A stretch of 64,000 bases of DNA from contig JAFTPS010000014.1 of assembly GCA_017463185.1 (NCBI GenBank), positions 40,514-104,513 of the forward strand. Reading direction: 5' to 3'. The notes beneath the pieces are model-generated. The model had not been told where the DNA came from. It ran no database searches and worked only from the letters and a program-made list of their open reading frames with translations. How positions within the stretch are numbered: position 1 is the first letter of the stretch; the number at the start of each line of letters is the position of its first letter. This stretch comes from Alphaproteobacteria bacterium (GTDB taxonomy: Bacteria; Pseudomonadota; Alphaproteobacteria; Rs-D84). Both the position numbers and the translations under genes were made by a program. Shown here in pieces: positions 42,967-43,249 of the stretch.

Positions 42967-43195
42967 TCTTTGACCTCCTTTGATTTTCACGAATGAAAAA
43001 ACCGCCGAAAGATTCAAGCGGTTGGAGGTTCATAGCTATAATTCGGTATAGTGTGCTTATTTTACGTGACAAACACGTATTATTCACAACCCTCCAACCA
43101 AACGATTGGAGAAAAAAATACTTATCACCACATAATCAATACATGGCGCCGAAATCACGGGCTATGACACCCCATTATGGCAAAACCACCATAAC
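42967..43195 (-). promoter_or_regulatory. Structured attenuator-like 5' leader, class-2 copy A
   Basis: P1 GGTTGGAGG (43020..43028) / CCTCCAACC (43091..43099). P0 CTCCAA (43093..43098) / TTGGAG (43106..43111). Terminator-like AACCGC..GCGGTT plus T6 (42996..43023). Promoter TTGCGG-17-TATAAT at 43202..43230. Confidence 0.55.
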
Positions 43196-43249
43196 AGTCT
43201 GATTATAATCAAATGTTTTCATTTCCGCAAATACTTATATAAATAAAAG

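Follow-up and report, generated by a model that had tools for sequence, protein, structure and literature searches.

In a window of 64,000 nucleotides (nt) from an uncultured alphaproteobacterium of the Rs-D84 lineage (assembly GCA_017463185.1, contig JAFTPS010000014.1, positions 40,514 to 104,513), a gene for a secreted, cysteine-rich (Cys-rich) protein is preceded by a structured leader of ~200 nt, at ~42,996-43,195 on the minus strand (-). The sequence of this leader, which we call leader A or copy A, allows two mutually exclusive folds, both of which covary among homologous leaders, and its central three-way junction resembles the RNA family catalogued in Rfam as sRNA-Xcc1 (RF02221; sRNA, small RNA). 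Leader A is probably a cis-acting, promoter-proximal transcription attenuator built on a diverged junction of the sRNA-Xcc1 type, with termination as its default, a view that we hold with moderate confidence. Positions below are those of the window or, where a locus number (L) is given, of that locus.

The leader is a real, non-random feature. A 19-nt core pattern matches exactly three sites in the window, the copies A, B and C, where 0.35 would be expected, and none of 100 shuffled sequences reached three. The folding energy of leader A has a z-score of -5.2, and a covariance model scores copy A at 88 bits (E = 5e-20), copy B at 106 (105.7) bits (E = 1.5e-24) and copy C at 58 bits (E = 1.4e-12).

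Leader A is larger than the three helices by which it had originally been described. Its promoter (43202..43230, -) consists of TTGCGG (43225-43230), a 17-nt spacer and TATAAT (43202-43207), read from the sequence and located, like the ATG at 42966, where the original prediction had put it; transcription would start at ~43195. The consensus promoter scan omitted this promoter because its -35 box has only 3/6 matches. TTGnnn-17-TATAAT stands at the equivalent position in the homologous leaders, and in their full upstream regions the element begins directly after the -10 box. On the minus strand, the 5' end of leader A forms the hairpin H1 (GUUAUGG/CCAUAAU, 43174..43195) in minimum free energy (MFE) folds, a position at which other leaders have a hairpin of variable sequence. 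The 5' arm of a long-range pairing (LR, 43149..43173) comes next, made up of GGGG (LRc), UCAUAGC (LRa, 43161-43167) and GUGAUUUCGG (LRb, 43149-43158), and is followed by an inner hairpin, H3 (43126..43148, from the MFE fold), and an AU-rich linker (43112-43125). The H3 position varies among homologues; a terminator-like hairpin takes its place in copies B and D and in the phage relatives.

Three short segments downstream of the linker carry the switch proper. Region 1, CUCCAAUC (43104..43111, -), assigned by covariation, is the 5' arm of P0, the anti-antiterminator, and region 2, GGUUGGAGG (43091..43099, -), is a shared strand whose partner is either region 1, giving P0, or region 3, giving P1. 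In copy A, P0 is really a helix of 8 bp, CUCCAAUC with GGUUGGAG; its core, CUCCAA (43106-43111) with UUGGAG, was correctly recognized at the outset, with a one-nt slip in the 3' arm, which lies at 43092-43097 rather than 43093..43098. P2 (43052..43089, -) has a UGUG/CACA stem, an internal loop AAUAAU / AAAAUAAG and an apical hairpin ACGUG/CACGU. The P3 hairpin CUAUA/UAUAG (43036..43051, -) holds the 3' arm of LRb, CCGAAUUAU (43038-43046), in its loop and 3' arm, so that P3 and LR are mutually exclusive. The J3/1 segment (43029..43036, -) is the 3' arm of LRa, GCUAUGA (43030-43036), placed by LRa covariation, plus an invariant unpaired A at 43029. Region 3, CCUCCAACC (43020..43028, -), identified from the P1 pairing statistics, is the 3' arm of P1. 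Its last four nt are the beginning of the terminator 5' arm, P1 and the terminator overlapping in AACC, and in the MFE folds the GGGG of LRc, near the 5' end, can pair with CUCC of region 3 (positions 2-5). The intrinsic terminator (42996..43023, -; helix 43000-43023, U6 42996-43001; MFE fold), AACCGCU/GGCGGUU with an upper stem GAA/UUC, is a G+C-rich hairpin and U-tract located between promoter and gene.

Across the homologues, the general order is H1; GGGG-YG-UCNNNAC-CC; 8-11 variable nt of the LRb 5' arm; the H3 hairpin or an insert; an A-rich linker; region 1; a 3-7-nt loop; region 2; P2; P3; GNNNGA-A, containing the LRa 3' arm; region 3; and the remainder of the terminator. Two motifs once thought invariant have to be redefined. 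CUUGAA in the terminator loop is not universal, other copies differing, and its GAA pairs with the UUC of the upper terminator stem. In the YGAA just 5' of region 3, the Y, the G and the first A are the end of the covarying LR 3' arm, and it is the second A that is unpaired and invariant.

These parts combine into two folds. The OFF fold contains H1, LR (LRa, LRb and LRc, the last pairing GGGG with CUCC of region 3), P0, P2 and the terminator; in copy A, LR reads 5' GGGG-UCAUAGC-..-GAUUUCGG with CCGAAUUAU-..-GCUAUGA-A-CCUC. The ON fold contains H1, the hairpin H2, which the LR 5' segment makes instead from GGG(G)/CCC, and the three-way junction of P1, P2 and P3, in which P1 takes up the terminator 5' arm. 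LR and P1 are unable to coexist, because they cross and only one nt separates the LRa 3' arm from region 3. The arrangement of anti-antiterminator, antiterminator and terminator first proposed survives as a layout: P1 (43091..43099 with 43020..43028) and the terminator AACCGC/GCGGUU plus U6 are as drawn, and the layout is conserved in ~50 homologous leaders (P1 97%, P0 91% and terminator 94% paired). What it misses is the dominant feature, the pairing of the leader 5' end with the P3/J3-1 segment in competition with the junction, and also H1, H2, P2 and P3.

Both folds covary, and we take both to be under selection for that reason. In an alignment of 52 matches (A4), built with a model that did not contain P1 and hence not fitted to it, 97.4% of the P1 cells are paired, with changes on both sides at 4 of 9 pairs. 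The corresponding figures are 91.2% and 5 of 9 pairs for P0, 91.1% and 5 of 5 for P3, and 93.9% and 8 of 9 for the terminator; P2 has both-side changes at 4 of 4 pairs and 76.7% pairing, a figure lowered by register slips (MAFFT, covariance model). Controls with the 3' partner slid by 1-3 columns give 31-55% pairing on A4. For LRa plus LRc and for H2, a second alignment of ungapped 33-mers (A5) was used, in which pairing reaches 94% (both-side changes at 6 of 11 pairs) and 91% (4 of 4), respectively. The central LRa pair is AU in 9 leaders, GC in 9, UA in 9 and CG in 5. The position of the LRa 5' arm was found by a complementarity search, so that only its constant context (GGGG-YG, arm, CC, just after H1) and the slid controls protect it from selection bias.

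The changes are also evident by eye. P1 exists in at least six compensatory sequence versions among the copies: GGUUGGAGG / CCUCCAACC, GGCAGGAGA / UCUCCUGCC, GUCGGGGU / ACCCCGAC, GCCGGGGAU / AUCCCCGGC, GGUCGGGUGU / AUACCCGACC and GGUCGGGGGG / CCCCCUGGCC. The P2 stem appears as GCGG/CCGC, UCACC/GGUGA or GUAUGUG/CACAUAC. LRb is copy-specific, each of the five 5' arms in the window favoring its own 3' arm, and across metagenome-assembled genomes (MAGs) the LR duplex energy averages -29.0 kcal/mol for cognate arms versus -21.6 for non-cognate ones. Since U-G pairs are frequent in P0, and in one orientation only, the structure belongs to the sense-strand RNA.

Five copies lie in the 64-kb window, of which A, B and C form class 1 and D and E class 2. 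Copy B (13393..13660, -; 105.7 bits), a long form of class 1 with an inner terminator-like hairpin, precedes an open reading frame (ORF) at 12675-13367. Copy C (22985..23165, -; 58 bits) precedes ORF 21045-22955, which has a Pfam OmpA match, and its regions 1, 2 and 3 are altered in concert to CUCCUGUCC / GGCAGGAGA / UCUCCUGCC; both copies carry the compensatory versions quoted when they were first noticed. The class 2 copies, previously called R-class leaders and now seen to have the same architecture as class 1, have GUCGGGG.. in region 2 and ..CCCCGAC in region 3, and each stands before an ORF with a signal peptide. Copy D (1690..1921, +; region 2 GUCGGGGU, region 3 ACCCCGAC) precedes ORF 1943-3163 (ATG 1943), and its three-way junction at 1812-1904 is a sub-threshold match to RF02221. 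Copy E (61784..62009, +) gave a weak model match of 13 bits and its architecture was read directly; it precedes the ORF that starts with the ATG at 62029.

A relaxed-pattern scan of 185,579 species genomes returned 45 loci, ~41 of them genuine and all in MAGs from gut or rumen that carry the label Alphaproteobacteria or Candidatus Enterousia; the matches include three in a complete genome of 958,618 bp. Four loci (L019, L030, L033 and L045) were discarded as chance matches. Enterousia belongs to the uncultured order Rs-D84, with genomes below ~1 Mb (PMC12306168). The core covariance model, R1, found copies invisible to the pattern, namely tandem arrays and the window copies D and E, and its matches at L018:903-984 and L035:4699-4797 were set aside as chance. 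A metagenome scan contributed six more class 2 leaders; nine of its 16 loci were discarded on the same grounds. The total, counting the Candidatus Enterousia / Rs-D84 MAGs, is 56 copies. Both classes coexist in genomes beyond this window, since one metagenome contig, L054, carries a class 1 leader (4323-4426, -) and a class 2 leader (5366-5494, -) ~1 kb apart. The class 1 pattern had no matches in viral contigs, and a phage origin of class 1 was rejected on that result.

The tandem arrays consist of two or three complete units of promoter, leader and terminator, with a gene after the last unit only. Three copies each are found at L007 2337-2940 (-) and L035 4347-4883 (+), and further arrays lie at L021 5138-5454 (-), L026 3900-4207 (-) and L036 ~1040-1236 (-), the last with a partial second junction after the terminator. 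Units inside one array have a common LRb 'address'.

How these leaders relate to catalogued RNAs depends on which class is examined. At gathering scores, the whole window yields one tRNA only from Rfam; permissive scans of copies A and B return noise, and scans of A, B and D contain no riboswitch or T-box, as the original prediction had anticipated. RF02221, whose gathering score is 53 bits, gives no match for copy A at E <= 10 and none for copy B at E <= 1. Class 2 comes closer, with 40.9 bits for copy D (1812-1904; E = 4.7e-6 in a 311-nt search), 40.1 bits for L052 and 31.7 bits for L053, all below the gathering score. The RF02221 consensus is exactly the P1-P2-P3 junction, including the 9-bp closing helix, and the alignments superpose helix for helix. 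The unpaired motifs are similar, not identical: RF02221 has AUAcAAuA ... GAAuaa in P2 and UUugAg in J3/1, class 2 keeps AUAUAACA...GAAA and UUUUGAA, class 1 keeps ..GAAUAAG and UU(U/C)(C/U)GAA, and copy A has AAUAAU-hairpin-AAAAUAAG and GCUAUGAA. In the opposite direction, a model of class 1 junctions only (R2) detects the Xcc1 RNA of phage Aaphi23 (898-974, 28.4 bits, E = 5.9e-6), coinciding with the RF02221 match, and responds more weakly to other phage members (E = 0.015 for L064, 0.036 for L065 and 0.084 for L063). Because RF02221 finds class 2 and R2 finds Aaphi23, class 1 (copy A included), class 2 and sRNA-Xcc1 are linked in both directions. The earlier description of an unrecognised RNA class thus holds in that no Rfam gathering score is reached, and fails in that class 2 scores as it does against RF02221 and a model of class 1 finds a genuine Xcc1 RNA. 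By sequence, the element is best described as a previously unrecognised, diverged branch of the catalogued RF02221 that stays below the Rfam threshold; its architecture is new, and so is the mode of action proposed for it.

The genuine phage members show the sRNA-Xcc1 junction in its own setting. We compared Aaphi23, P13374, Pmp3, Mcat16 and F004 (L062-L066), the first two, which score 86.1 bits (Aaphi23) and 79.6 bits (the Stx phage P13374) against RF02221, having been joined by Pasteurella, Moraxella and Stx2 phages. All five Xcc1 RNAs lie ~40 nt upstream of a co-oriented gene, annotated as antirepressor (ant/antB) in four and as a hypothetical protein in the Moraxella phage; in Aaphi23 the RNA sits between the q antiterminator gene and ant. 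An H2-like hairpin occurs in the upstream leader of all five, with a loop in Aaphi23, UGUCGAAA, equal to that of class 1. The phage upstream leaders are complementary to the P3 loop plus J3/1, with duplexes of -28.2 and -38.8 kcal/mol, and this long-range complementarity lies outside the Rfam model. The phage members have no adjacent P0 and no terminator overlapping P1; like copies B and D, they instead contain a terminator-like hairpin inside the leader, before the junction. Such a hairpin with a U-run, between the LRb 5' arm and region 1 or the junction, was seen at 13519-13560 (-) in copy B, at 1777-1799 (+) in copy D and at ~805-850 in L062 and ~835-872 in L063. Every genuine phage Xcc1 leader examined has one, in some cases with a region-1-like sequence in its loop (e.g., CACCCGAU in L066).

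In the literature, sRNA-Xcc1 was detected by northern blot as an 88-nt RNA in X. campestris (PMC2996969), and it has been reported on integrons upstream of symE (bioRxiv 10.1101/2025.06.18.660453), in seven copies, five in tandem, in Xylella (PMC12189769), and in an APSE phage upstream of an ORF6N gene (bioRxiv 10.1101/2020.03.17.996009). It is called trans-acting and its function is left unassigned (PMC2996969; PMC12189769; bioRxiv 10.1101/2025.06.18.660453), and in this literature we found no description of a long-range alternative pairing or of an attenuator role. The Stx prophage Xcc1 occurs in 153 of 5426 complete E. coli genomes, where the leader is present and unannotated in RefSeq; BLAST of the Xcc1 consensus against plasmids gave one partial match.

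The gene context is that of cis-acting leaders in most cases. The gene presumed to be regulated by copy A (42391..42978, -) has a Shine-Dalgarno (SD) sequence, GGAGG, at 42974-42978, begins with the ATG at 42966 and encodes a Cys-rich protein of 191 aa that has a signal peptide; the Cys-rich gene after it (40915-42051) may be part of the same transcript. The U-tract is only 29 nt from the ATG, too close for this gene to have a separate promoter, and a promoter scan found no minus-strand promoter-like site between the terminator and the ATG. A second promoter in this interval, or one with its -35 box in the terminator loop (TTGAA), was considered unlikely, with no convincing -10 box by eye and none in the scan. 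A co-oriented ORF follows ~49 of the 56 copies (three assignments were corrected by eye), with the terminator ~11-45 nt from the SD and start codon in most and up to 89 nt away in a few. The seven copies with no ORF are succeeded by a further complete copy, promoter and leader included, except for one, where the further copy is partial.

The genes behind the leaders, both here in the window and in the MAGs, are chromosomal ones for surface proteins, set among housekeeping genes. Most downstream products have signal peptides and many are Cys-rich with common C-terminal motifs, so the generalization that all copies precede secreted Cys-rich proteins is largely right. The exceptions are products with OmpA domains, as after copy C, or YadA-anchor domains, a minority of small cytoplasmic proteins, one with a helix-turn-helix (HTH) domain, HTH_3, and the gene-less copies. 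Two protein groups can be told apart by their C termini. The Cys-rich secreted family (42391-42966, 40915-42051 and 12675-13367, all -, and many other loci) ends in ..CP..GG.YG....[TD]CY.P.G..F.D..G.G.Y...CY[YW].., and a second group in ..DDCGR.LH.G....Y.R......P.L...; neither matches a Pfam family at the curated threshold. A single 656-aa ORF of the window (23209-25179, -) combines a YbeY endoribonuclease domain (residues 16-134) with the apolipoprotein N-acyltransferase domains LNT_N and CN_hydrolase and looks like a ybeY-lnt fusion.

Upstream of leader A, a perfect bidirectional terminator, AAAAAATCCCCCAAACGGGGGATTTTTT (43332-43359), lies after a PAP2 gene and would insulate the leader promoter from upstream transcription. 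Between this terminator and the promoter, at 43253-43331, and in another intergenic region, at 32341-32364, the 11-mer AGTGGTTAGTG occurs in inverted copies, five in all with at most one mismatch, where 0.6 would be expected and none of 100 shuffles reached five. It may be a transcription-factor site or a repeat similar to repetitive extragenic palindromic elements. Similar TTAGTGG-rich stretches stand upstream of the leader promoters in L003, L004, L006 and L008.

Folding calculations bear on which of the two states would prevail. All five leaders in the window have the OFF fold as their MFE structure. In the same five, a fold with P1 enforced is 14-20 kcal/mol worse than the MFE, and still 10-16.5 kcal/mol worse when the RNA ends right after region 3, before the terminator 3' arm exists. 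The OFF (terminator) form is therefore the predicted ground state, by 10-20 kcal/mol in these models. Because OFF is favored and P0 is local and made before region 3, we infer that termination would be the default and that read-through would depend on a factor or on a kinetic trap. As the RNA is made, P0 and P2 would form first, and the emerging P3/J3-1 segment would be captured by the free 5' arm of LR. Region 3 would then be free for the terminator, and RNA polymerase would halt at U6 (42996-43001), freeing an RNA of ~200 nt. Expression of the surface-protein gene would require the less stable junction fold. A trans-acting factor could hold P1, P2 and P3 together, or mask region 1 or the LR 5' arm; it would have to contribute ~10-16 kcal/mol or act kinetically. 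Our best guess is that this role falls to a protein that binds RNA, or to RNA polymerase itself, reading the conserved P2 internal loop and the junction. A small ligand is a less likely trigger; a macromolecular factor is favored because conservation between the classes is low outside the helices and the downstream genes have no common metabolic theme. That TATAWT, a -10-like sequence in the P2 loop, serves as a sigma-dependent pause signal is only an idea. Binding of the 30S subunit to the SD-like region 2, or pairing of region 1 or 3 with the SD of the gene, was also considered and set aside, as neither would explain antitermination.

Several observations weigh against reading leader A as an attenuator. 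Termination and read-through are model predictions only. P0 is adjacent and as strong as P1, and no purely co-transcriptional path to the ON fold is apparent. Near the leaders of L035 and L039 no candidate trans-acting factor emerged; the neighbors are housekeeping genes and genes for small proteins, either HTH or uncharacterized. The conserved P2 loop is replaced by an ordinary hairpin in L021:5138-5242, which makes P2 less convincing as a binding site common to all copies. The phage relatives do not have a terminator overlapping P1, and the attenuator read-out may be specific to the Rs-D84 lineage. Finally, in seven copies no gene follows the promoter and terminator, an arrangement also compatible with sRNA genes that stand alone, and in Xanthomonas sRNA-Xcc1 was observed as a separate 88-nt RNA and called trans-acting (PMC2996969).

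The last two points lead to a different account, in which each copy is a stand-alone gene for an Xcc1-like trans-acting sRNA, the downstream gene is expressed by leak-through or independently, and the alternative pairings tune folding or stability. All copies come with a strong promoter, a hairpin at the 5' end and a terminator that looks efficient, the terminated fold is the MFE, and the gene-less copies occur in tandem arrays, with precedents in the 88-nt RNA (PMC2996969) and in the Xylella copies (PMC12189769). However, some 49 of 56 copies stand directly before a co-oriented ORF, mostly within 11-45 nt, with no space for another promoter; genuine Xcc1 RNAs likewise lie ~40 nt before co-oriented genes; and P1 is kept by selection, its only obvious effect being to sequester the terminator 5' arm. 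We give this account a real but minority chance, and the two roles are compatible, as terminated leaders may act in trans too. The position of P1 also recalls an ON-type riboswitch, in which a small molecule or ion would bind the P1-P2-P3 junction, stabilize P1 and block termination. A junction closing helix that overlaps the terminator is the classic ON layout, as in the adenine switch of pbuE; the internal loop of P2 is conserved (3' side ..GAAUAA..); and cyclic di-GMP (c-di-GMP) switches occur in multiple copies before surface-protein genes in Clostridioides. This parallel is weakened by the scarcity of invariant nucleotides outside the helices between classes 1 and 2, by a P2 loop that is conserved in class 1, different in class 2 and absent from one copy, and by downstream genes for diverse envelope proteins with no common metabolic theme. 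The large energy gap, the kinetic route blocked by P0 and the antirepressor genes behind the phage relatives also speak against it, and we doubt that leader A is a riboswitch.

The copy-specific LRb arms could instead indicate built-in antisense control like that of c4 and ant, with the 5' arm (H2 loop plus LRb 5' arm) serving as an antisense to the junction, either in cis or in trans via short transcripts ending at the inner hairpin, and with hypervariable LRb as an address that prevents cross-talk between paralogues. The arms are mutually orthogonal in the window and across MAGs; copies B and D and the phage relatives have a terminator-like hairpin right after the LRb 5' arm; tandem copies have identical LRb sequences; and the genes behind the phage members are ant genes, which c4 targets as well. 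Yet no separate 5' RNA is predicted for the short class 1 leaders, including copy A, which have no inner terminator, intramolecular pairing should beat pairing in trans, and Rfam finds no C4-like RNA (RF01695) match in the leaders. The chance of this being the main mode of control is small. The remaining explanations are far less probable. It is scarcely credible that the element is an inherited flank of duplicated genes, or a set of DNA inverted repeats (a miniature inverted-repeat transposable element or an invertible element) with no RNA function. Its multiple copies and the partly paralogous Cys-rich genes downstream would suit such an origin, but the arms of seven helices vary between copies and remain complementary, and unrelated proteins (OmpA, YadA-anchor, HTH) are also found downstream. 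A DNA-level inverted repeat was rejected on account of the G-U pairs in one orientation only and the copy-specific covariation. A ribosome-mediated attenuator of the trp/his type, with a leader peptide, would have the same 1:2 / 2:3 / 3:4 logic, but an SD-like sequence and start codon with an ORF crossing region 1 occur in just 9 of the 53 leaders, and their frames and stop positions do not agree. As the original prediction had noted, there is no consistent leader peptide, and we rejected this explanation as almost certainly wrong.

If the attenuator reading is true, the catalogued 87-nt junction is one state of a larger cis-regulatory switch whose other state, LR, is outside the Rfam model. 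sRNA-Xcc1 is widespread in phages, integrons, Xanthomonas, Xylella and Stx prophages and has been catalogued with no mechanism, for which the present analysis supplies a testable hypothesis. In Rs-D84/Enterousia, uncultured gut bacteria with reduced genomes, many surface or adhesin-like genes would stand behind one RNA device, probably a global regulon in organisms with otherwise few regulators. An RNA module from a mobile element seems to have been recruited to control host genes and made into an attenuator by the addition of P0 and an overlapping terminator. A bolder version, which is speculative and rather improbable as a whole, holds that the sRNA-Xcc1 junction is not a trans-acting sRNA at all but the antitermination-competent state of a self-contained switch from phage antirepressor (immunity) leaders. 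Expression would be blocked by the copy-specific, built-in 'antisense' arm of LR and switched on by the folded junction, which might act directly on RNA polymerase, as the put RNA of HK022 does. Rs-D84 would have domesticated and amplified this module, to five copies in 64 kb, so as to gate its whole variable surface-protein repertoire, with orthogonal LRb addresses and gene-less decoys allowing selective or mutually exclusive expression.

Each of the known systems compared here shares some of these features. Like the classical trp/his and PyrR-controlled pyr attenuators, the leaders have an exclusive anti-antiterminator, antiterminator and terminator with common strands, all three of which covary; unlike them, they have no leader peptide or known protein site, and the second, long-range competition of LR with H2 and P3 has no counterpart there. 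With ON riboswitches such as pbuE, and c-di-GMP-II before pilus and adhesin genes, they have in common a junction closing helix set against a terminator, multiple copies and surface-protein genes, whereas no conserved ligand core is evident in the leaders, the additional P0 and LR lock the OFF state, and Rfam gives no riboswitch match. The c4-ant system of phages P1 and P7 and the countertranscripts of the pT181 type offer a third likeness, in that a segment upstream in the same operon is complementary to a target before an antirepressor-type gene and short variable segments set the specificity; here, in contrast, the complementary segments lie on one short leader, which has no RF01695 match. 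The closest relative is sRNA-Xcc1 itself, with its 9-bp G/C-rich P1, a P2 whose A/U-rich internal loop (..AAUA.. / ..GAAUAA..) surrounds an optional apical hairpin, P3, and J3/1 with UUUNGA(A/G). To this the Rs-D84 leaders add an adjacent P0 and an intrinsic terminator that overlaps P1, and whereas sRNA-Xcc1 usually resides on mobile elements, before ant, symE or ORF6N, the Rs-D84 leaders reside before chromosomal genes for surface proteins.

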